32,000 nucleotides of DNA, taken from Halogeometricum borinquense DSM 11551 (lineage in GTDB: Archaea; Halobacteriota; Halobacteria; Halobacteriales; Haloferacaceae). The translations under genes and the position numbers were made by a program. The notes beneath the pieces were generated by a model. It saw nothing but the letters and a program-made list of their open reading frames with translations, did not search any database and had not been told where the DNA came from. The stretch is taken from assembly GCF_000172995.2 (NCBI RefSeq), contig NC_014729.1, positions 660,001-692,000 on the forward strand, given 5' to 3'. This document shows positions 8,683 through 32,000 of this stretch, one piece after another (the first letter of the stretch is position 1; each line of letters opens with the position of its first letter).

Positions 8683-10613
8683 GCCGAAAGGAGTTCCGCG
8701 ACTTGGCCGCCCCGGAGGCGGCGCACGAGGCCATCGCGGGGCTGGATCTGACGCCCGAAACCGAGAGAGTCCCCCTGCGAGAGTCGCGCGGTCGTGTCCT
8801 CGCCGAACGGATCGACGCCGAGATGGACGTGCCCGGATTCGACAGAGCAAGTATGGATGGGTATGCCGTCCGCGCCCGCGACACGTTCGGTGCGGACGAA
8901 GCGTCGCCGGCGGAACTCGAACTCATCGGGGAGGTACACGCCGGAGTCGAACCCGACGTGGTCGTCGGAGAAGGCGAAGCGGCCGAAATCTCCACCGGTG
9001 CGGTGATGCCAGACGGCGCGGACGCCGTCGTCATCGTCGAACGAACCGAGGAACGCGACGGAACGCTCGTCGTCCGCGACGCCGTCGCACCGGGCGACAG
9101 CGTGATGCTTGCGGGCGCGGACGTAGCCGCCGGTGCGCGCGCACTCGGTCCCGGGACGTACCTGACGCCCCGCGAAATCGGCCTGCTTTCGGCGCTCGGC
9201 GTTGACGAGGTGCCTGTCCGCGGCAAACCGACTGTCGGAATTATCTCAACCGGTGACGAACTCGTCCGCCCCGGTGACCCGCTGAACAGCGACGCCGGAC
9301 AGATTTACGACGTGAATAGCTACACCATCGCCACCGGCGTTGAGGAGGCTGGCGGCGAGGTTCGTATGTATCCGCATGCGGGAGACGACTACGAAGAGAT
9401 GGAGCGAATCCTCGTGCAGGCGGCCGAGGAGTGCGATTTAGTGCTCTCCTCCGGATCCACCTCCGCCTCCGCCGTAGACGTTATCTACCGCGTCATCGAG
9501 GAACGCGGCGAACTCCTCCTGCACGGCGTCGCGGTCAAACCGGGCAAGCCGATGCTCGTCGGTACTCTCGGCGGCGAGCGTGGTGCCAAGAGTGAGAACA
9601 AAGGGGACACCGCGGCGACCGACTCGCCCTCCGCGTACGTCGGTCTCCCGGGCTATCCCGTCTCTGCGCTTACGATCTTCCAGACGTTTGTCGCGCCCGC
9701 TATCCGTCGCGCTGCCGGGCTTCCAAACCCTCAAACCGCGACCGTCTCGGGGTCGATGGCCGTCCGGGAACGGTACGCCGAGGGCCGACTGCGACTCATG
9801 CCCGTCGGCCTCCTCGAAAACGAGTCCGGCGAGACGCTCGTCTACCCGGTGGACAAAGGAAGCGGGGCAACCACCTCGCTGGTCGAAGCCGACGGCGTGG
9901 TCGAAGTTCATCCAGACACCGAGTACCTCGCCGACGGGGAGTCTGTCGAGGTACGTCTGTTCTCACCGGACGTACGTGCGCCGACGCTCCTCGGCGTGGG
10001 TGAGGATGACCCGGCACTGTCCCGACTCCTCGACAGACTCGACTCGCCGCGCTACCTCCCCGTCGGAAGCCGCGAGGGTCTGCGCCGCCTCCGCGACGGC
10101 GTGCCGGATGTCGCCGTCGTCGCCGGACCAACCGAACGAACCGTCGAAAGCGTCGATATCGGCGGCTGGACGCGCGAGTGGGGGCTTATCGTCCCCGCAG
10201 GCAACCCCGATGACGTATCCGGACTCTCCGACCTCGTCGCGCGTGACCTGCGGTTCGTCAACCGTGATACAAACGCCGGTCTCCGTGCAAGTCTCGATGC
10301 TGCTCTTGACGAACTCGCGGCCGAACGCGATACGTCGAAACGCGAACTCACAGCGCGGATCGACGGCTTCGAGTTGACGACGAAGGCGACGGAGAGTCCC
10401 GCAAGAGCCGTCCTGCGAGGAAAAGCTGACGCCGGACTCGGATTACGCGCCACCGCAAATGAGCTTGATATGGGGTTCATCCGAGTCGGAGACGAGTCCG
10501 TTCGTGTCCACGCGAACCCCGACAGAACGGAGAAGCCGAGCGTTGAAGCGATCACAGCGCTTCTCAGTGACGCTGACGACGTGTTCGACGAACTCTCCGG
10601 ATATAATCGGTAA
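8670..10613 (+). CDS. moeA: MoeA-family molybdopterin biosynthesis protein fused to a C-terminal periplasmic-binding-protein-like domain
   Basis: The N-terminal part carries GFDRASMDGYAVRA, SSGSTSAS and LPGYPVSA. An extra C-terminal region of about 230 aa (LLGVGEDDPALS...GFIRVGDE) resembles a substrate-binding domain. The start is GTG at 8670, or GTG at 8679 which overlaps the upstream stop as GTGA. Confidence 0.8.
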   Translation: MVGVSRKEFRDLAAPEAAHEAIAGLDLTPETERVPLRESRGRVLAERIDAEMDVPGFDRASMDGYAVRARDTFGADEASPAELELIGEVHAGVEPDVVVGEGEAAEISTGAVMPDGADAVVIVERTEERDGTLVVRDAVAPGDSVMLAGADVAAGARALGPGTYLTPREIGLLSALGVDEVPVRGKPTVGIISTGDELVRPGDPLNSDAGQIYDVNSYTIATGVEEAGGEVRMYPHAGDDYEEMERILVQAAEECDLVLSSGSTSASAVDVIYRVIEERGELLLHGVAVKPGKPMLVGTLGGERGAKSENKGDTAATDSPSAYVGLPGYPVSALTIFQTFVAPAIRRAAGLPNPQTATVSGSMAVRERYAEGRLRLMPVGLLENESGETLVYPVDKGSGATTSLVEADGVVEVHPDTEYLADGESVEVRLFSPDVRAPTLLGVGEDDPALSRLLDRLDSPRYLPVGSREGLRRLRDGVPDVAVVAGPTERTVESVDIGGWTREWGLIVPAGNPDDVSGLSDLVARDLRFVNRDTNAGLRASLDAALDELAAERDTSKRELTARIDGFELTTKATESPARAVLRGKADAGLGLRATANELDMGFIRVGDESVRVHANPDRTEKPSVEAITALLSDADDVFDELSGYNR

Positions 10614-10684
10614 GCAATACAGTTCCGTATTATTACATTTCTACCGCCACGAAAACTTTAGTGATATGCCACTAATTGTCTCAC

Positions 10685-11446
10685 ATGGTCCCTCGCGCGA
10701 CGGTCCTTCACGTGGACGACGATCCGGACTTATTGGAGCTTTCTGCGTTCTCTTTCGATCAAGCGGCGAGTGACGAACTCGAGATGGTGACGGCATCGGA
10801 TGCGGTTGCGGGTCTCGATACACTCGAATCGCAGTCTGTCGATTGTCTTGTCAGCGACTCGCTTCGACTCCCGGACGATACGCCGTTCATCGTCGCCGCA
10901 CGCCAGCGAGAGCCGTCGATACCTATCGTCTTCTACACCGCCAAAGGATGGGACACCGTCGCTCTCGACGCACTCGAAGCCCGTGTCTCTGAATACATTC
11001 GCAAGGGTGACGAGGGCGATATTGCAGCCGTTATCGAGCGCGTGCGCGAACTTGCAAAGCAGAACCAAACGCCGACCATCGACGAGGAGATGCTGTTCGA
11101 CGGCCGGCCGTGCGATGCGGTCGAAGAAGCCGTCGATACGTTCCCCGCAGAGAGTGTGAACGATGCATGGACGGTTATCGGCGTCCACGACTGGGAAGTG
11201 GACGACGAACTCGCCACGACTATTGCCCAAGTGATGGAGGCGTACACCGGTATCGACGCCCTCGAAGCCGAACCGCTGTTCTCCTCGTTGGATATGGATG
11301 CGTTGGATTCGTTACTCGAACCGCGAGCGAGCGAGACGCCGCGCTACGATATTCAGGTCCGGTTCCCGTACGAAGAGTGGGAACTCTCCGTCTCCAGCGA
11401 CGGCTTCATTTCGGTTCGTCCTCTTCCCGAGACGGACGCGGAGTAA
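10685..11446 (+). CDS. response-regulator receiver domain protein with C-terminal HalOD1 output domain
   Basis: The N-terminus VLHVDDDPDLLEL...DCLVSDSLRLPD...VFYTAKG fits a receiver fold. The C-terminus AEPLFSSLDMDALDSLLEP...IQVRFPYEEWELSVSSDGFISV fits the halobacterial output domain 1 pattern. The ATG at 10685 is preferred over the TTG at 10676. A weak TATA-like TTTAGT lies about 26 nt upstream. Confidence 0.7.
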   Translation: MVPRATVLHVDDDPDLLELSAFSFDQAASDELEMVTASDAVAGLDTLESQSVDCLVSDSLRLPDDTPFIVAARQREPSIPIVFYTAKGWDTVALDALEARVSEYIRKGDEGDIAAVIERVRELAKQNQTPTIDEEMLFDGRPCDAVEEAVDTFPAESVNDAWTVIGVHDWEVDDELATTIAQVMEAYTGIDALEAEPLFSSLDMDALDSLLEPRASETPRYDIQVRFPYEEWELSVSSDGFISVRPLPETDAE

Positions 11447-11448
11447 GT

Positions 11449-12132
11449 TCAGTCTACGACGAATCCGCCGTCGGTAGCGACGCGTCGGTTCCGTAAATCC
11501 TCGAACGTCTCGACGCGTACGTCAGCAAGCACGCACCGCCCGCGCCGTTCGGGTGTGTGCCGTTCGACGTGGATGCCGTCAAGTCCGGCGTTCCATGCGG
11601 CCCCGATATCACTGGACCCGTCACCGGCGAGGACGCCTTGACTGTCTGAGTTGGGGTCGAGACCCAGCGCCTTCATCGTGTGATGGACTGGTTCTGGGTC
11701 CGGTTTCCACCCCAACTCTTCGGTACAACAGACGACGGTATCGAACCAGTCGCGGACGTCGAGGTGGTCGATCACCGGATCAGCGAGGAACTGCTGACAG
11801 TGAGTGACGACGCCCACCGGTCGGTCGTCTACGAGGTCTGCGAGGAGGTCAGTGGCATCGTCGTGGAGATACGTCGCCTCCGCGCGTGCCTGCGGGTCTT
11901 CGACGGCGTGGAAGGCGGGCCAGAAGTCGTCGGGATCGATATCCCACGCGCGCAGTTGTGGGTCACGTGCCCCGCCGAGGCCGTGCCAGATGATCTCGGC
12001 TTCACGGTCGGTGAACTCCCGGCCGAGTCGGTCGCCCACGCGGTCGAACACCTCGCGGGTGTACGACCAGTCGGCGTCTACGAGCGTGCCGTCGAGGTCG
12101 AATAGCCAGAAGTCGTACGCGTCGGCAACCAT
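11449..12132 (-). CDS. HAD-superfamily hydrolase (phosphatase-like)
   Basis: Motif I is FDLDGTLVD. Motif IV resembles AGDGSSDIGAAWNAG. Confidence 0.8.
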   Translation of the reverse strand: MVADAYDFWLFDLDGTLVDADWSYTREVFDRVGDRLGREFTDREAEIIWHGLGGARDPQLRAWDIDPDDFWPAFHAVEDPQARAEATYLHDDATDLLADLVDDRPVGVVTHCQQFLADPVIDHLDVRDWFDTVVCCTEELGWKPDPEPVHHTMKALGLDPNSDSQGVLAGDGSSDIGAAWNAGLDGIHVERHTPERRGRCVLADVRVETFEDLRNRRVATDGGFVVD

Positions 12133-12290
12133 CGGAAATCAATTATATGCGATCTATAGCTAAGTGCTTTTCGCCGTTACTATCGGCATATCCCATATCT
12201 CACACCGGAAAGAACGTCACAAATCACGACTGAGCGGTCCGGTTTCACTTCTTTCGAAATTCTCATTGGCGTCCACTATAAATTTGTTCT

Positions 12291-12740
12291 ATGTTTAGAA
12301 GGCGGTTCCTCGCGGAACTCGGCAGTGTGGGCGGAGCGATTGCAATTGCCGGCTGTTCCGGTCCCTCGAACGGTGCTTCAGGCACCACCACGCCCTCTCT
12401 CGATGAGATAAAGGAGAACGCTTCCGCTGTAAAACACGAATCGTTGTACCGGGATAACAGCCAGTACAAGGGTGAGTACGTCGTTTTCGAGGATGTCTAC
12501 ATCGCCGATGTCGTTACGTCAGATGATGGGTTACACGAGTACATTATCGGCGTTCCGCAGGATGGCCTTTTTGACGATGATTACCTCTGGGGAACGTGGA
12601 CGGGTGACCCGTACCGAGAAAACGATCAGATCACTCTCTGGGGGAAGGTAACCGGGCTACACGAATACGACACGCTCGGTGGCAATAAAACGGTCCCCGA
12701 ACTGGAGTTGGTTGACATCGAACTGCTCGATAGCGCGTAA
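12291..12740 (+). CDS. Tat-signal lipoprotein, function unknown
   Basis: The N-terminus MFRRRFLAELGSVGGAIAIAGCSG has a twin-arginine motif, a hydrophobic region and a lipobox Cys. GC is locally lower: one hand-counted coding line gives 50 % and the upstream intergenic line about 37 %. Confidence 0.65.
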   Translation: MFRRRFLAELGSVGGAIAIAGCSGPSNGASGTTTPSLDEIKENASAVKHESLYRDNSQYKGEYVVFEDVYIADVVTSDDGLHEYIIGVPQDGLFDDDYLWGTWTGDPYRENDQITLWGKVTGLHEYDTLGGNKTVPELELVDIELLDSA

Positions 12741-12750
12741 CGAACGGCTC

Positions 12751-13125
12751 TCAGCTATCGTCCTCGATTCGAATACTCGACCCCAGATACTTGTGAAGCA
12801 CTTCGCGGGTGGAGTCAGCATTAAACAGCGTGAGGTCTGCAGCAATCTCCGTGCGCAACGCCTCCATGTACGCCTCGTCAGCACGCAACTCGCTGAACGA
12901 GACGGACTCGACCGGGAGGGAGAGCCACTCTTCGGCGAGTTCACGTGCGTACCGGTCGTCGTTGACTTCACCCCGCCAGAGCGTGTTGCGGAAGAACAGC
13001 CAATCGCCCTCGCCCGGTTCGTCGGCAGGAACTTCAACGACGGTCTCGAACGACCTCGGGTTCGTTCGAACTCCGGACGCTGGGTCGAGTCTGAACTGGA
13101 CGCGAAAGACGTACGCGGCATTCAC
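12751..13125 (-). CDS. conserved-looking acidic hypothetical protein, tightly coupled to the pterin dehydratase gene
   Basis: The GTG at 13125 lies 2 nt after the TAG of the upstream gene (TAGCCGTG). The product begins (M)NAAYVFRVQFRLDP...WLFFRNTLWRGEV. The R-rich prefix of ORF 12751..13353 overlaps the PCD gene and is rejected. Confidence 0.5.
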   Translation of the reverse strand: MNAAYVFRVQFRLDPASGVRTNPRSFETVVEVPADEPGEGDWLFFRNTLWRGEVNDDRYARELAEEWLSLPVESVSFSELRADEAYMEALRTEIAADLTLFNADSTREVLHKYLGSSIRIEDDS

Positions 13126-22976: not shown

Positions 22977-23211
22977 GATGAAGCACCCCTACAGGGTGAT
23001 GAGATGATGTTGGTGATGATGTCACGAGCGGATCTGTGACGGCCTTATATAAGGGTCGCTAACGGCAAATAACTATCGTACTCACAACTGATTTCGACGT
23101 TCGTCGTCGTTTCGGCCACAAGTTCTTTCCCGTGCGTCCTCGCCGTCGCTGCCGTCGAACGGCCTCGTGAGGTGCGCAAAATCATACTGTGTATTCACCT
23201 CAAAAGCCACT

Positions 23212-23234
23212 TCTGAAGAAAATATTTCTTCAGA
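23212..23234. promoter_or_regulatory. perfect 10-bp-arm inverted repeat TCTGAAGAAA-ATA-TTTCTTCAGA in the AT-rich dnaG / symporter-operon divergent intergenic region; candidate operator
   Basis: Base pairing was verified by eye: 10 of 10 arm positions pair, with a 3-nt spacer. It lies about 60 nt upstream of the DUF3311 ATG (23294). Confidence 0.5.
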
Positions 23235-23293
23235 TTGCAGGATCGAATCATAAACAACAATACTTACTAATTTCGAGAGGCAATCAACGACAG

Positions 23294-23515
23294 ATGACAC
23301 GACCGAGGACGGATTATGTATGGGTCGGTGTGTTCGCCGTCTTGGTGACGTTTGCAATCCCGTGGTTTCTGTGGCGGGATGCGGCCACATGGGCGGGACT
23401 GCCAGTCTGGCTGTGGTGGCACATTGGGTGGATGGTACTCGCGTCGGGGGCGTTTTACCTGTTCACGCTGGGTGCGTGGGACCGCGGTATGAACGTCGAA
23501 CCGGAGGAGATGTAA
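23294..23515 (+). CDS. small 2-TM membrane protein, DUF3311-like partner of a sodium:solute symporter
   Basis: The product MTRPRTDYVWVGVFAVLVTFAIPWFLWRD...LPVWLWWHIGWMVLASGAFYLF has two W-rich TM helices. It ends 3 nt before the symporter gene. I chose the ATG at 23294 inside ORF 23189..23515. Confidence 0.65.
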   Translation: MTRPRTDYVWVGVFAVLVTFAIPWFLWRDAATWAGLPVWLWWHIGWMVLASGAFYLFTLGAWDRGMNVEPEEM

Positions 23516-26498: not shown

Positions 26499-26548
26499 CG
26501 CCACATTCCAGTCGGTGAGTTTACAACTACCGGACGAGAGCGGCGAGT

Positions 26549-26923
26549 ATGGATCGTCGGCTGTATATCGTCAATGCTGTCGTTCTCCTCACCCTCGCTC
26601 TCGCGTATGCCGCCTTCTGGCCGCACACGACCACGATCATCGCTCTCATCGAACTGCTGGTTTTCGGAGCGCTCTGCTATTTCGCCACCGGATTCAGAAT
26701 CTCGATTTCTGTCGGTAGCTGGACTCTACCGTGGTACTCGATCTACGGTATCGGTACCCTCGCTCTTGGCGGTGCACTGCCACTGCTCGTGATGCAGATG
26801 GCCGGTGGTGGTCGCCTCGGCCCGTTTTACATCGTCTTACTACTCATTCTCGAAATTCCGATGGTAGTCGTCGGTGTCAAGTATCTATTCGGAACTCACA
26901 ACACGGGTATCGCCGCAGAATAG
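26549..26923 (+). CDS. small integral membrane protein (4 TM), unknown function
   Basis: The 124-aa product is hydrophobic. A T-run follows downstream (26966-26971). Confidence 0.55.
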   Translation: MDRRLYIVNAVVLLTLALAYAAFWPHTTTIIALIELLVFGALCYFATGFRISISVGSWTLPWYSIYGIGTLALGGALPLLVMQMAGGGRLGPFYIVLLLILEIPMVVVGVKYLFGTHNTGIAAE

Positions 26924-26965
26924 CCGCAACTATCCCTCCGGTGGTATCGAGAACGAACGATTATG

Positions 26966-26974
26966 TTTTTTATC
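26966..26974 (+). promoter_or_regulatory. T-run/TATA-like element TTTTTTATC
   Basis: It is centred about 26 nt upstream of the ATG at 26997. It could also terminate the upstream membrane-protein gene. Confidence 0.35.
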
Positions 26975-26996
26975 TGTGGACTACGCGGTATGTGGT

Positions 26997-27311
26997 ATGG
27001 GTACTCGTGCCTCTGGTGGTGGCGGTGCTTCCTTTCCCGACGTAGTGCCGTTCAACGTGCAGTGTCTCACCCGACTGAGTTGGGAACTCGGCTCTCGAAC
27101 CGTCGCTGACGACGAATCGACGCTTCGGGGCGAGTGGGAACACACGGGCACGTCGTGGACGTTGTCGCACTATCGCGTCACGACCAATACGGACATCGTA
27201 CGCCTCCGAACCCCGGTCGGACGAGAACGGTTCTACGGTGTCGCGCAGATGGATTTAGAGGCGGTGCTTCCGAATCTGGAGAACGCGCCGTACTGGCGGC
27301 GGTGCGAATAG
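26997..27311 (+). CDS. hypothetical protein (104 aa)
   Basis: This uses an internal ATG of ORF 26874..27311, chosen because the upstream part overlaps the preceding gene and a TATA-like element sits about 26 nt upstream. I recognised no motif. Confidence 0.4.
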   Translation: MGTRASGGGGASFPDVVPFNVQCLTRLSWELGSRTVADDESTLRGEWEHTGTSWTLSHYRVTTNTDIVRLRTPVGRERFYGVAQMDLEAVLPNLENAPYWRRCE

Positions 27312-27364: not shown

Positions 27365-27387
27365 CCTTCCGTGGCGAGAGACTACGT

Positions 27388-28314
27388 ATGCAGACGCACG
27401 TCGTCCCCGTCGGGTTCGATTACGACCGACTCATCGCGCCACTCATCCGCGACCAGTTGGACGTCGATCACGTCATCCTCTTGGAGGGGGCAATCGGGAG
27501 TGAGGCGAACGTCGAGTACTCGCAGAACCTCTCGACGAAACTGGAGAAAGACTTTCAGAACCTCCTCGGCGCGGACACCGAACGCGTCGTCATCGAGGAC
27601 GTGTACGATTACGACGCCGCCTTCGAGCAGGCGTACGACCTCATCAACACGGAGTTGGACAAAAGCGACGACACCGAGGTCTGGGTAAACGTCTCCGCGA
27701 TGCCGCGGCCCGTCTCCTTTGCCTTCGCCACCGCCGCTCACTCGGTGATGGTCGAACGGCAGGCGGACAGAGAGCGCATCCACACCTACTACACGGCTCC
27801 CGAGAAGTATCTGGAGACCGAACTCGCAGAAGAGGTGCGCGCGGCGCGCGACTTGCTCGGTGACCTCCTGAACGGCGCGGAGTTGGACGACGACAGAATC
27901 CGCGAGCGGTTCGAGTCGGCCTCTGATCTCCTCGAAGAGTTCGACGAACGCGGGACGACTATCGGCGCGAAACGGATCGGCGACGAACACATCGTTGAAC
28001 TTCCCGTCGCGTCGTTCTCGAACGTCAAGCCGTTCGAGGAGATTATCCTGTTCGAGTTGGGCGAGTACGGCCAGTTCGAGTCCGTCTCCGAGTTGGCCGA
28101 AACGCTCGCCCGAGACATGAACGAGGAGTACACCGACTCCTTCCGGTCGAAAGTCATCTACAACGTTGACCGCCTCGGCCCCGGCGGGAAGGGCTACATC
28201 GAACAGGAAGAACATGGGAAGTCGTACCGAACGCGCCTGTCTCGCATCGGAGAACTGTGGGTGCGTTCGCACGCCGGTGCCGACGCCGACGAACTCTCAC
28301 GCGCCGGGAACTAA
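27388..28314 (+). CDS. Csa3/CARF-like Rossmannoid N-terminal domain + C-terminal winged-HTH protein (haloarchaeal putative transcriptional regulator)
   Basis: The N-terminus MQTHVVPVGFDYDRLIAPLIRD...HVILLEG...VWVNVSAMPRPVSFAF follows the beta-strand/GF/helix layout of Csa3-type CARF domains. The C-terminus ...IILFELGEYGQFESVSELAETLARDM...YNVDRLGPGGKGYIEQEEHGKSYRTRLSRIGELW looks like a wHTH. The call rests on pattern resemblance only. Confidence 0.55.
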   Translation: MQTHVVPVGFDYDRLIAPLIRDQLDVDHVILLEGAIGSEANVEYSQNLSTKLEKDFQNLLGADTERVVIEDVYDYDAAFEQAYDLINTELDKSDDTEVWVNVSAMPRPVSFAFATAAHSVMVERQADRERIHTYYTAPEKYLETELAEEVRAARDLLGDLLNGAELDDDRIRERFESASDLLEEFDERGTTIGAKRIGDEHIVELPVASFSNVKPFEEIILFELGEYGQFESVSELAETLARDMNEEYTDSFRSKVIYNVDRLGPGGKGYIEQEEHGKSYRTRLSRIGELWVRSHAGADADELSRAGN

Positions 28315-28423: not shown

Positions 28424-29206
28424 TTACTCAGTTTGACGCGGAATGGACCCCGATTCCAGTTTCTTCACGCGCGTCGTGAGCGAGAAGAACGTGGCGACGA
28501 GCGTCAGGACGATAGCCCCCGCCGCGGCGATTTGGAGGACGCTAGACCCGCCGACGATGACACCGTCCGCGAGGGGAATTGATGTGTGGTGGGGGTCACC
28601 GACGATAGGAATGAAATAGTCTACTACGTCGTTGAACCCGTACCAGACGATGGCGACGGCGACGGCGCGGACGGGGAAGTCCGAGATGCGGTGGAGGACG
28701 AACGCCTCGACGACCATGGCGAGGTGGCTGAAGAACAAAAATAGGTACATCGGGAGGGCCGTCTGATCGAGGAACGCATCCGAGAACGCGGTGAGGACGA
28801 ACGGCGTCCACAGGCCGAGCTTCCAGCATCCGAAGAAGGCGAGTGCGTTGACGTACTCGTTCGTCCGGTCGAGTCGCCAGAGGGCGAACGCGCCGGCGAT
28901 AAACAGCGTCGCCATGGGGCTGTCCGGGACGAACGGCCACATGACGACGGGTTCTGATGCAAACTGCCACACGATCAGAGGATCCGACAGCGGCAGCGGA
29001 TGAAATCCGTAGTACCAGAAGCCGAACACCGTCCCAACGAGATTGATTGCGACGACAGTCCAGACGAGGTTGAGACCGACGTTCTCTAACCACTCGGGGA
29101 GGGGGGCGAGCCACCACGGTAGTTGGTCCGCGGGCGGGAGTCCGTCGTCGTCCGCGAGGCGGCGAGCCTCATCGACGAGACGCCGGATTCCGGTGGACGT
29201 GGCCAT
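28424..29206 (-). CDS. DUF1405-like polytopic membrane protein
   Basis: The pattern WWLAPLPEWLENVGLNLVWTVVAINLVGTVFGFWYYGFHP...FVPDSPMATLF... matches my recollection of DUF1405. About 6 TM segments are present. Confidence 0.6.
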   Translation of the reverse strand: MATSTGIRRLVDEARRLADDDGLPPADQLPWWLAPLPEWLENVGLNLVWTVVAINLVGTVFGFWYYGFHPLPLSDPLIVWQFASEPVVMWPFVPDSPMATLFIAGAFALWRLDRTNEYVNALAFFGCWKLGLWTPFVLTAFSDAFLDQTALPMYLFLFFSHLAMVVEAFVLHRISDFPVRAVAVAIVWYGFNDVVDYFIPIVGDPHHTSIPLADGVIVGGSSVLQIAAAGAIVLTLVATFFSLTTRVKKLESGSIPRQTE

Positions 29207-29468
29207 GTGTCAGGCTGGTCCGAGCGGTACAAATCGGTGGCGGTTCCGGGCGTGGACGAGACCCCGTTGGATTCGTTCGATGGTGATTTTGTCAGTGGAT
29301 GAACTTCGGAAGGTTCTCGTTCTCGATGCAGACGCCGCGAGTCTACGGCCACTCGCTGTAAATGGCCGAGTCTGTCGGCGGATGTGTGTGGGTTCAACTG
29401 CGGCTTCGGTCACTATCACAGTGATATCGTCGCGGTCACTTATAAAGCAACCATTGATCTGGTAGAAA

Positions 29469-29963
29469 TCACACGTGGTTTTCGAGAAGCGCAACGAAGT
29501 CTTCGGCATCTGCATCACGTGCGAGGCTGAGGGGGCTGATTTCAGCTTGGTTCTCGTGAGTTGGGTCAGCACCGTGCGTAACGAGCAGATTCGTCAACTC
29601 GTAGTTTCCGTTAGCCACCGCTTTGTGAAGCGGCTGTGCTCCATACATATCTTCAATATCGAGTCTAGCGCCATTTTCGACAAGCATCTCAACGATCTCA
29701 TGATGTCCACGATCAACCGCTTCATGGAGTGGGGTTCTCCCCTGATTGTCCTTGGCATCAAGTTCGATCCCACGCTCAATCAGTTCCGCAGCGAATTCGG
29801 GTTCTCCTGTCCATGCTGCTATGTGCAGTAAGTTACCACCATCTCCAGAACGGTGGTTCAAATCAGCATCCGAAATCAGCTGGTAAAACTGCTCTTTGTT
29901 GTTTTGAATGATTGCGGATTCGATCTCCGTGCTGGTGTATAGCTCGTCATCTTTCTCAGCCAT
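29469..29963 (-). CDS. ankyrin-repeat protein (3 full repeats + capping repeat); candidate immunity protein
   Basis: The repeats are GGNLLHIAAWTGEPEFAAELIERGIELDAKD, NQGRTPLHEAVDRGHHEIVEMLVENGARLDIED and MYGAQPLHKAVANGNYELTNLLVTHGADPTHEN. The ATG at 29963 overlaps the upstream stop by 8 nt (ATGGCTGA). Hand-counted lines give 42-53 % GC. Confidence 0.85.
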   Translation of the reverse strand: MAEKDDELYTSTEIESAIIQNNKEQFYQLISDADLNHRSGDGGNLLHIAAWTGEPEFAAELIERGIELDAKDNQGRTPLHEAVDRGHHEIVEMLVENGARLDIEDMYGAQPLHKAVANGNYELTNLLVTHGADPTHENQAEISPLSLARDADAEDFVALLENHV

Positions 29964-31212
29964 GTTTCTCACCTTCGATATCTCCCCATTTTTGCTTCCA
30001 ATACCTTCCTACTCCTTCATGTCTTCTACCCATATTTTCTCTTGGTGCTTCAGCTTGGTAGTGGTCCGGATTCTGGTACTCTTTCACGAATTCCTCTTCC
30101 GATATAATTCCTTGTTGATAATACTCAAGAAGATATCTGTATTCTCGCTGTTTTTTGTGGCCCATATGCCATTGTTCTCCTCTACCTCTGTCTTTGTCCC
30201 ACGTTAGCACTTCTTCTGTGTTTGGATCTCGAACCTTGTCGTCAATTCCCTCTGATCTTGCTCTGTTCCAGACTTCTTCGACTTGTCCTGGAGCGTACGG
30301 TGGTCGATGATCAATACTGTATTTTTTCTGCTTATACTGTTCTGTGTCTTTTTCGGCGAATCGACCGATATTGTCCCGAGGCTGATCTCTCCACCGCTGA
30401 ATGTGCACATCGGCTTTGTGCATCCGATAGATGCCGAGTTTCCCGCCGCTCATCACCCGCTGGGCCGTCTCTTCGGCTTCCCGTTCGAGACGCTCGTCAG
30501 GATCAATTTCTAATTTCCCTTCTTGCGGGAGCATCGAGACGGCCCCACCTGTTTGCTGTCTCACATGCGCTAACTCGTGAGCGAGCAGGTGTTGACCTTC
30601 TGTTGAAGAAGGGTCGTACTCGCCGTGGTTGAACGCGACATGATTTCCCACCGTGAACGCGCGAGCGTTGATATCCTCACAGGCGTTTGCGGCGCGTGAC
30701 CCAGTATGGATACGCACGTCGTCCAAACTCTCGCCCATGCGCTCTTCCATCGCTTGTTGAATTGAGCTATCGAGTTGCTGGCCTGGCGAAGAAATCACGT
30801 CACGAACCGAATCGGGGACTTGCGCGTTTCCAGATTTCGACGCCTCGTGGTGCGCGCCACGACTGCGCTGGACTGATTTAGCGTTCCGGCGCTCTATGTC
30901 TTTGGGCACTTCGGCAGGACGCTGTTTTTGCCGTTCACGGAATGCACGCATGTCGCGCGGTTTGCCCATCGTGTCCACGGTCATGCCCTCGTCGGCCCAC
31001 TGCTGGACTTGGCCCGCGCCGTGTTGTTTGACAAGACGTTGGACTATCACCTCCAATCCATTCCGATACATGTCCATGCCGAAGCGCTGTTCGCAGCCCT
31101 GTGCGGTCAGCCGTCCACTGCGTTGCCGACGCGAGGAGTCCACGCGGTCCCGCTCGCTAGAAGGAGACCATTGGGTTTTCTTTTGCACCTCGTTCGCGGA
31201 GCGAAATCCCAT
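29956..31212 (-). CDS. polymorphic-toxin-like protein: unknown basic N-terminal region + DUF4157 (HExxH metallopeptidase-like) + C-terminal GH-E/HNH-EndoVII-fold nuclease domain
   Basis: The DUF4157 pattern is QLDSSIQQAMEERMGESLDDVRIHTGSRAANACEDINARAFTVGNHVAFNHGEYDP...GQHLLAHELAHVRQQ. The C-terminal GH-E pattern is VRDPNTEEVLTWD...WHMGHKKQREYRYLL...EYQNPDHYQAEAPRENMGRRHE. The ATG at 31212 is preferred over 31278 because of the TATA box 28-34 nt upstream. Confidence 0.8.
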   Translation of the reverse strand: MGFRSANEVQKKTQWSPSSERDRVDSSRRQRSGRLTAQGCEQRFGMDMYRNGLEVIVQRLVKQHGAGQVQQWADEGMTVDTMGKPRDMRAFRERQKQRPAEVPKDIERRNAKSVQRSRGAHHEASKSGNAQVPDSVRDVISSPGQQLDSSIQQAMEERMGESLDDVRIHTGSRAANACEDINARAFTVGNHVAFNHGEYDPSSTEGQHLLAHELAHVRQQTGGAVSMLPQEGKLEIDPDERLEREAEETAQRVMSGGKLGIYRMHKADVHIQRWRDQPRDNIGRFAEKDTEQYKQKKYSIDHRPPYAPGQVEEVWNRARSEGIDDKVRDPNTEEVLTWDKDRGRGEQWHMGHKKQREYRYLLEYYQQGIISEEEFVKEYQNPDHYQAEAPRENMGRRHEGVGRYWKQKWGDIEGEKHG

Positions 31213-31239
31213 CGTTCGATTTCGCTGACACAACCTTCG

Positions 31240-31246
31240 TATATAA
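31240..31246 (-). promoter_or_regulatory. TATA box (TTATATA on the minus strand) of the toxin/immunity operon
   Basis: It lies 28-34 nt upstream of the ATG at 31212, inside an AT-rich stretch. If 31278 were the start it would fall inside the coding sequence. Confidence 0.45.
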
Positions 31247-31435
31247 TTGTTTGTTGCTGAGATAACATGGGAAAACACAATTTAGATGGACAACAAAATC
31301 GTCCGCCTCGCGGACGCTCAGGACTACATGCTGTCGGAACAGCGGTCGCGGCAGGTGTCACGCGACATATTCGCACCCAAACCGTACTGGTTGGTCTTAA
31401 GTAGGTTGGACCGTAACCATCGGTCATGCCCGAGG

Positions 31436-31999
31436 AGACTGATTTGGAGGAGCTTCGTCGCGGGACGGAACTCGTCAAGCGCGGGTTCGCACAGATGCAG
31501 AAAGGCGGCGTCATCATGGACGTTGTCGATGCCGAACAGGCCCGAATCGCAGAGGAAGCGGGCGCAGTTGCGGTGATGGCGCTGGAAGCCGTCCCGGCCG
31601 ACATCCGCAAGCGCGGCGGCGTCTCCCGCATGGCCGACCCCGAGACGGTCAAAGAGATCATCGACGCTGTCTCCATCCCGGTGATGGGGAAGGCTCGAAT
31701 CGGTCACCACACGGAAGCGCAGATTCTCGAATCCATCGGCGTGGACATGATTGACGAGAGTGAGGTCCTCACGATGGCCGACGACCGCTACCACATCGAC
31801 AAGCGCGACTTCACCGCGCCGTTCGTCTGCGGTGCCCGCAATCTCGGCGAGGCACTCCGCCGCATCAACGAAGGCGCGGCGATGATTCGAACGAAGGGTG
31901 AGGCTGGCACGGGCGACGTGAACCAGGCAGTCCACCACCAGCGCAACATCAAGGGCTCCATCCGCAAACTCCAGGGGATGACCCACCAAGAACGCGAAA
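31436..31999 (+). CDS. pdxS: pyridoxal 5'-phosphate synthase lyase subunit PdxS (5' part; runs off the right window edge)
   Basis: This CDS is not in the supplied ORF track. My manual translation from the ATG at 31436 gives [72 protein letters not shown]...[18 protein letters not shown]..., which is canonical PdxS/SNZ. No stop occurs before nt 32000. Confidence 0.93.
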
Positions 32000-32000
32000 A

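Follow-up and report, generated by a model that had tools for sequence, protein, structure and literature searches.

The stretch of DNA considered here (hereafter, the window) comprises 32,000 nucleotides (nt) of the chromosome of Halogeometricum borinquense DSM 11551 (contig NC_014729.1, positions 660,001 to 692,000). Near its right-hand end, a gene for a predicted polymorphic toxin of the DUF4157 family (ADQ66343.1/C499_08857) and the ankyrin-repeat gene that follows it, its predicted immunity gene, are located between two housekeeping genes, one for a DUF1405 membrane protein and the other pdxS. The gene table was taken from H. borinquense DSM 11551 assembly GCA_000337855.1, which is 100% identical to the window over 11.6 kb; strain GCA_004150395.1 is 99.7% identical, and the toxin is annotated at 418 amino acids (aa) in both. 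The mechanical open reading frame (ORF) extends to a GTG codon at 31278 (29956-31278, 440 codons). Since the homologues begin at MGFRS and the annotated protein has 418 aa, the true start of the toxin is the ATG at 31212. In what follows, residues 1-273 are called the trunk and residues 274-418 the tip. The features of the locus are the following:

28424-29206, minus strand: DUF1405 membrane-protein gene (Pfam, 5e-46), conserved flank and anchor for the retrieval of orthologous loci
29261-30394, minus strand: exchanged cassette (GH-E tip, ankyrin gene and 208-nt tail), 1134 bp, GC 0.482
29261-29468, minus strand: non-coding tail of the cassette, with the downstream breakpoint at 29260/29261, 54 nt before the DUF1405 start codon
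29469-29963, minus strand: predicted ankyrin-repeat immunity gene, 164 aa (ADQ66342.1; Pfam Ank_2, 3e-23)
29956-31212, minus strand: toxin gene, 418 aa
29959-30393, minus strand: C-terminal toxin tip, residues 274-418, with a GH-E HNH/EndoVII nuclease domain at about 30016-30243
30394-30408, minus strand: junction motif VHIQR, residues 269-273, the last conserved trunk residues and the upstream recombination breakpoint
30544-30777, minus strand: DUF4157/eCIS_core (PVC-metallopeptidase) domain (PF13699; 1.3e-31, 109 bits, cut-off 22)
30778-31212, minus strand: N-terminal region of the trunk, residues 1-145, conserved among haloarchaeal paralogs
31426-32000, plus strand: pdxS (SOR_SNZ), conserved flank, with its ATG at 31426, divergent from the toxin gene and continuing past the window end

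The DUF4157 domain has an intact HELAH motif, of which H212, E213 and H216 are invariant in the homologue alignment, and its PF13699 match above the gathering score together with this HExxH sequence places the protein among predicted DUF4157 cargo; linkage to an injection-system cluster, a further mark of such cargo, was not seen among the genes checked. The tip matches GH-E (PF14410; 5.3e-26, 91.5 bits, cut-off 25), with W348, M350, G351, H352, R356, E357 and Y358 invariant (G351, H352 and E357 in 14 sequences). This above-cut-off match with conserved G-H and E residues assigns the tip to Tox-GH-E, and the position of an ankyrin-repeat gene directly after a polymorphic toxin gene agrees with Imm-Ank. 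The ankyrin gene begins within the end of the toxin gene, its ATG and the toxin stop codon lying in an overlap of 8 nt (ATGGCTGA). An earlier note, made from the letters of this DNA alone, had named a DUF4157 domain, a C-terminal nuclease and an ankyrin gene, and it was right in each case (eCIS_core/DUF4157, GH-E and ankyrin, with the E-values given above).

The AlphaFold model of the toxin has a mean predicted local distance difference test (pLDDT) score of 61 and is good only for the GH-E domain (pLDDT 84-93). The N-terminal region of the trunk contains a helical segment at residues 51-96 (pLDDT 67-77), and VHIQR is located within a low-confidence segment (residues 231-293, pLDDT <50) between the DUF4157 and GH-E domains. 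A sequence search of the PDB gave nothing relevant, and Foldseek found no PDB match with E <1, which leaves the GH-E fold without structural confirmation.

Using the DUF1405 gene as an anchor, we retrieved the orthologous locus from H. borinquense GCA_040679015.1 (L083) and from an independent read-set assembly (L084). On the pdxS side, which includes the trunk, both match the window with 97.6-97.7% identity down to 30395, and on the DUF1405 side, from 29260 onward, L083 is 97.1% and L084 96.0% identical. The DNA between 30394 and 29261 is unrelated to that of the window. At the upstream break, the window and L083 have the same bases up to ...GTGCACATTCAGCG and diverge at the third base of the Arg codon. 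The replacement block of L083 and L084 has 716 bp, versus 1134 bp in the window, with a guanine-plus-cytosine (GC) content of 0.446. In it, VHIQR is continued in frame by a Colicin_D tip (6e-19), whose gene overlaps the one for Colicin_immun (3e-13), just as the toxin and immunity genes of the window overlap. Since near-identical flanks enclose an unrelated interval, tip and immunity gene were exchanged as one unit. In H. borinquense, one complete cassette has taken the place of another on an orthologous trunk, the two alleles being GH-E/Ank and colicin-D/ImmD; the upstream crossover is exactly at the conserved end of the trunk, and the downstream one is just before DUF1405.

The earlier note had proposed that a toxin tip and its immunity gene were swapped as a cassette onto a resident trunk, and that relatives with a conserved trunk and a different tip-immunity unit should exist. 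Such relatives are found at the orthologous locus itself (L083 and L084), and the swap is supported, but "resident" holds only within H. borinquense. In Halogeometricum rufum and Halogeometricum limi there is no toxin between pdxS and DUF1405, and this absence shows the whole module to be an insertion on the H. borinquense lineage. The same absence would also agree with complete toxin-immunity modules, trunk included, having been inserted independently between pdxS and DUF1405 in different strains, as would the GC content at third codon positions (GC3) of the trunk, 0.61-0.63, which is below the 0.75 of the host genes. Independent insertions are nevertheless very improbable, because they would not yield a trunk identity at the level of the flanks: the trunk DNA of L083 is 97.6-97.7% identical to that of the window, like the housekeeping flanks (97.1%), and this includes the last 123 bp up to the junction codon, whereas paralogous trunks within the species are just 73-85% identical at the protein level.

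The L083 trunk carries a 277-bp deletion (window 30518-30794; L083 6107/6108), whose length is not divisible by 3 and with which the larger part of the DUF4157 domain is lost. What is left of the toxin is spread over three ORFs (141, 60 and 101 aa), and the colicin-D immunity gene is intact. Because of this frameshifting deletion, the toxin of the L083 strain is probably dead, and the strain may be an immune non-producer.

The boundary seen between strains is also the boundary of homology in the protein family. A search of 5.8 billion proteins identified 807 relatives of the toxin, most of which share only its first ~273 residues. Up to residue 273, more than 100 homologues show 55-85% identity, and beyond it they are unrelated; of the 99 alignments made with homologues bearing other tips, 53 stop at residue 273-274. 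The conserved junction extends upstream of VHIQR, with the wider motif GGxLGIxRMxxxxVH[VI]QR; among 117 homologues, conservation is 100% at Q272, 97% at R273 and 93% at H270. The N-terminal region of the trunk is 73-85% identical to that of paralogs with other tips. The closest trunks (P0002, P0003 and P0005; 73-85% identical) bear tips that are just 47% identical. Conversely, the proteins with the closest tips (P0008, P0019 and P0024; 59-64%) have N-terminal regions 30-38% identical in P0008 and P0024, and P0019 is without this region. Judged by these identities, the histories of trunk and tip disagree, as in a mosaic protein. An exact-protein look-up of the paralogs P0003 and P0019 for their genomic context returned no record. 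A constant N-terminus with unrelated tips, a tip-specific immunity gene downstream and the joint replacement of tip and immunity gene, by which polymorphic toxin systems are recognized, were all found here.

Base composition changes close to the same point. The single maximum-likelihood GC change point in the toxin ORF is located at codon 308 of 440 (window 30353-30354), ~40 nt from the homology break at the end of residue 273 (window 30394). GC3 drops across it from 0.61 to 0.35, and the observed likelihood ratio was reached in 0 of 1000 codon permutations. The earlier note had inferred a shift around 30360-30420 from GC counted by hand on 60-nt lines; all 13 of its values are correct to rounding, and the significant change point at 30354 is in the vicinity that it named. 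At codon positions 1, 2 and 3, the GC content is 0.68, 0.44 and 0.63 in the trunk (30394-31212), 0.59, 0.36 and 0.37 in the tip (29959-30393; overall GC 0.44), and 0.67, 0.34 and 0.51 in the ankyrin gene (overall GC 0.50). The ankyrin gene, which the note had also described as GC-poor, is indeed so, but it is intermediate and less depleted than the tip. The segment 29261-30394 (GC 0.482) is in essence the GC-poorest 1134-bp stretch of the window, with rank 35 of 30867 positions; the minimum, 0.481, is located at 29271, and the lowest value outside the cassette region is 0.542.

A drop of this kind could in principle arise with no exchange at all, from the amino-acid composition and functional constraint of a Lys/Glu/Tyr-rich nuclease domain. 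In agreement with this explanation, GC also drops at codon positions 1 (0.68 to 0.59) and 2 (0.44 to 0.36), and a tip recoded with the codon usage of the trunk is still predicted to show a GC drop, from 0.584 to 0.531. Nevertheless, amino-acid composition accounts for ~0.05 of the GC drop of 0.14, the remainder, about two thirds, being synonymous. The synonymous GC3 values are 0.61 (trunk), 0.34 (tip) and 0.49 (ankyrin gene), versus 0.75 in the host genes (twelve in the window), and the ratio of AGR to CGN codons for Arg changes from 1:29 in the trunk to 10:5 in the tip (Fisher p = 9e-6), with 24:320 in the host genes. The GC shift at the tip is thus largely synonymous. Moreover, the ankyrin gene and the non-coding tail are GC-poor too, the unrelated cassette at the identical site is equally GC-poor (0.446), and the allelic replacement, observed directly, already contradicts a history with no exchange, to which we leave next to no weight.

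A genome scan for related loci yielded at least 78 of them, from Haloferax, Natrinema, Halovivax, Natronobiforma and other genera, with no paralog loci of H. borinquense among those listed; the family-wide values given here refer to the loci listed. The GC content of the tip is below that of the trunk in 102 of the 109 trunk-tip pairs (Wilcoxon p = 3e-18), with means of 0.63 for trunks and 0.57 for tips (GC3, 0.72 and 0.62); the mean is 0.56 for the downstream genes and 0.63 for the flanks. The GC of a tip is correlated with that of the (immunity) gene directly after it (r = 0.68, p = 1e-15), weakly with that of the trunk (0.30) and not with that of the flanks (0.13). At least 31 tip clusters are represented. 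A homologous Ank gene comes after each of the 6 GH-E tips, and the divergences of tip and Ank roughly co-vary; other pairings are Colicin_D with Colicin_immun and another tip with a SUKH protein. Because trunks have near-host GC and tips and immunity genes are GC-poor across the family, the GC step marks the passage from a trunk of near-host composition to a GC-poor tip and an immunity gene that co-varies with it.

The low GC is a mark of the cassette compartment as a whole, and it does not date the swap seen in the window or show that it was recent, because the GH-E/Ank units of Haloferax, Halovivax, Natrinema and metagenome-assembled genomes are equally GC-poor (tips, GC 0.47-0.54), although their proteins are only 40-60% identical to those of the window. 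Two explanations can be offered for the GC-poverty: repeated import from GC-poorer sources, or an actively maintained bias. According to the second, the low GC of tips and immunity genes would be kept by selection or a locus-specific bias, for example through slowed translation or low expression of a dangerous protein, and the composition would be uninformative on foreign origin. The GC-poor GH-E/Ank units across genera (41-60% identical) suggest long persistence without amelioration, and a pattern that spans at least 31 tip clusters points the same way. On the other hand, tip GC tracks the GC of the immunity gene and not that of the flanks, as expected of units that move together, and the nesting of archaeal toxin domains within bacterial radiations (Zhang et al., PMC3482391) favours import. 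We consider a maintained bias unlikely, though clearly less so than the two alternatives discussed above; it concerns the cause of the composition alone and is compatible with the exchange of cassettes, which was demonstrated independently.

In bacteria, the CdiA-CT/CdiI and Rhs-CT/RhsI toxins have VENN or PxxxxDPxGL motifs that demarcate the variable region, and their loci contain orphan modules (summarised in PMC3482391). The H. borinquense locus is like them in having a motif at the trunk-tip boundary and in the joint exchange of tip and immunity gene, and orphan modules at related loci likewise keep a 3′ fragment of the trunk. It differs in its trunk, which is short (273 aa) and without filamentous repeats, in its delivery machine, in its domain of life and in having no orphan module at the locus. 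Many related loci hold truncated trunks that stop at the QR junction, each with a new tip and then a further gene behind it. By analogy, these truncated-trunk modules look like the orphan cassettes of bacterial contact-dependent inhibition (CDI) and Rhs loci. The window contains no second trunk fragment and no orphan tip-immunity cassette downstream of the toxin, a frequent but not obligatory feature of polymorphic toxins; the orphan cassette that the earlier note had suggested looking for downstream is therefore absent here, and orphan modules are present at the related loci L007, L008, L012, L034 and L036. Tandem arrays of up to four modules occur at loci L007, L008, L012, L014, L020, L022, L034, L036, L041 and L051, and some of the array modules start with trunk remnants from query residues 166-234 and end at the QR junction.

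Among loci L006-L076, 89 of the ~105 downstream genes belong to one family of acidic proteins of ~300-350 aa without a Pfam match (for example, L006 from ~9587). This family is located after most toxins with non-nuclease tips and is paired with many different tip clusters, which is unusual for a single immunity family. The tips paired with it are Gly/Ala-rich, with hydrophobic glycine-zipper-like stretches, and this composition suggests membrane-active toxins.

With regard to delivery, DUF4157 paralogs of H. borinquense were shown to be type-six-like effectors with immunity partners, and four toxin-immunity pairs were validated in this organism (Zachs et al. 2024, PMC11566945). The paralogs Hbor_01880 (P0031; trunk 83% identical) and Hbor_02990 (cluster of P0022; 75%) belong to the injection-system-dependent secretome (PMC11566945). 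The secreted protein Hbor_07690 was considered as a possible identity of the toxin and rejected, the published primers having no match in the window.

Taking the above results together, we propose that the toxin is a polymorphic effector of the haloarchaeal DUF4157 family, composed of a constant trunk and a 1134-bp exchangeable GH-E/Ank cassette that is replaced as a unit, and we assign to this reading a probability of about 0.88. The constant trunk would comprise the N-terminal region, the HExxH domain and a linker ending in VHIQR, and the cassette would comprise the GH-E HNH nuclease tip, the translationally coupled ankyrin immunity gene and the short non-coding tail. The conserved 3′ end of the trunk would supply homology for recombination, and a cassette, once at the locus, could pass from strain to strain by ordinary homologous recombination in its two neighbours, the trunk and the DUF1405 flank. 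By comparison with the paralog trunks that are 75-83% identical, the trunk would serve to load the toxin onto the contractile injection system of H. borinquense, which is membrane-bound and type-six-like, with residues 1-145 as the putative loading part. The nuclease tip would then damage the DNA of the target cell, perhaps once the HExxH domain, for which a role in the release of the tip has been proposed (PMC3482391), has made its cut, and the ankyrin protein would protect the producer and its kin.

Several observations weigh against this proposal. At the downstream breakpoint there is no shared sequence, repeat or microhomology, and the first entry of the cassette is thus unexplained. No donor of the cassette was found in the databases searched: the nearest tip from elsewhere has 64-67% identity and the nearest Ank 50%, a protein search with the tip alone gave two matches, the best 67% identical, and a metagenome scan with the ankyrin protein gave just generic ankyrin matches of 32-46% identity. 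The GC-poor GH-E/Ank units of other genera mean that a simple recent import, not yet ameliorated, fails to explain the composition. The ADQ66343.1 protein is not among the five DUF4157 proteins detected in the secretome (PMC11566945). Finally, the genes checked (10 large ORFs between 1 and 19 kb, and the annotated ones from ~20.4 kb to ~5 kb beyond the end of the window on the pdxS side) include no contractile injection system genes, only housekeeping ones. The published injection-system cluster is located elsewhere, at Hbor_38xxx (PMC11566945), and linkage to it is not required, since the published effectors Hbor_01880 and Hbor_02990 are also remote from it.

Beyond this proposal, it is possible, although we hold it rather doubtful, that the VH[IV]QR end of the trunk is a dedicated crossover point, through which freely recombining haloarchaea shuffle a shared pool of GC-poor cassettes among loci and species. 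Effector repertoires would then act as strain-specific "kin labels", and strains like GCA_040679015.1 would be resistant non-producers. Should this be true, archaea would have population-level toxin-immunity dynamics akin to those of bacterial CDI and Rhs systems.

Archaeal polymorphic toxins of the DUF4157 type are already known. Zhang et al. (2012, PMC3482391) defined the PVC-metallopeptidase and pointed by name to H. borinquense, which has several of these toxins, variable in their C-terminal modules; they list Tox-GH-E with "PVC", "Imm-ank" and "archaea: euryarchaeota", as well as Tox-Colicin D with ImmD in euryarchaeota. The novelty that the earlier note saw in finding a polymorphic toxin in an archaeon is thus forestalled by that study, which already cites the H. 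borinquense architecture. Subsequently, Geller et al. (2021, PMC8213781) used DUF4157 as a marker of injection-system cargo. The toxin of the window is like these PVC-metallopeptidase toxins (PMC3482391, PMC8213781) in its N-terminal HExxH domain followed by a variable C-terminal toxin, with no difference in kind; what the locus adds is nucleotide-exact breakpoints, the VH[IV]QR motif and the GC signature. It shares with the type-six-like effector-immunity pairs of PMC11566945 the organism, the trunk family and an immunity gene directly downstream, and differs from them in that ADQ66343/ADQ66342 is not among the pairs tested or detected, and in its chromosomal position between housekeeping genes. 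We found no published description of the VH[IV]QR junction motif, of the allelic replacement seen in the window or of the GC signature. The exact breakpoints and the compositional signature are an incremental addition, and they leave the existing picture of polymorphic toxins unchanged.

Nevertheless, for contractile-injection effectors of archaea, the locus is a clean, nucleotide-exact natural case in which tip and immunity gene were replaced jointly, and H. borinquense is the one archaeon in which this type-six-like secretion system has been shown to kill neighbouring cells. A GH-E nuclease and its ankyrin partner are predicted here, from their sequences, as a further effector-immunity pair. 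The VH[IV]QR motif and the GC step together offer a simple finder of cassette boundaries in haloarchaeal genomes, and differences in effector alleles between strains bear on kin discrimination and strain competition in hypersaline communities.

Considering the remaining features of the locus, the non-coding cassette tail (29261-29468) gave no protein similarity to other tips or immunity genes by blastx. Scans of the window for tRNA genes and Rfam families returned no match, and a promoter and terminator scan gave no signal above chance expectation. A perfect 14-nt inverted repeat (CGTCCGCGAGGCGG) at 29149-29162 and 31303-31316 flanks the toxin-immunity module on both sides, its upstream copy being part of a 17-nt hairpin with a 7-bp stem and a 3-nt loop. 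By chance, 0.2 matches are expected, and 1 of 100 shuffles gives two. Its downstream copy lies within the DUF1405 coding sequence and is nearly conserved in the toxin-less H. rufum, and for these reasons we set the repeat aside as probably due to chance.

The orthologous loci differ in some further respects. Fragments of an IS200/IS605-type Y1 transposase are located between usp and pdxS in L083 (3877-4359), and a complete Y1_Tnp and OrfB_IS605 pair is located near the locus in H. limi (L087 1479-3130); neither is present in the window. In H. rufum, an ACT_7 gene occupies the place of the H. borinquense toxin module, and an extra DUF8230 gene and a second, divergent DUF1405 copy are present at the locus (L085 6852-8660).

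Elsewhere in the window, milder GC dips (0.52-0.56 in 500-nt windows) are located at 10501-11000, 12001-13000, 23001-23500 and 26501-27000, the last of which spans a DUF7994 gene and a hypothetical gene of 104 aa. The HFX_2341-like/DUF7776 gene at 27388-28314 (plus strand) is shadowed by an antisense ORF of nearly equal length at 27382-28272 (minus strand), and an antisense ORF is likewise located opposite pdxS, at 31324-31989; both are typical spurious ORFs of GC-rich DNA.

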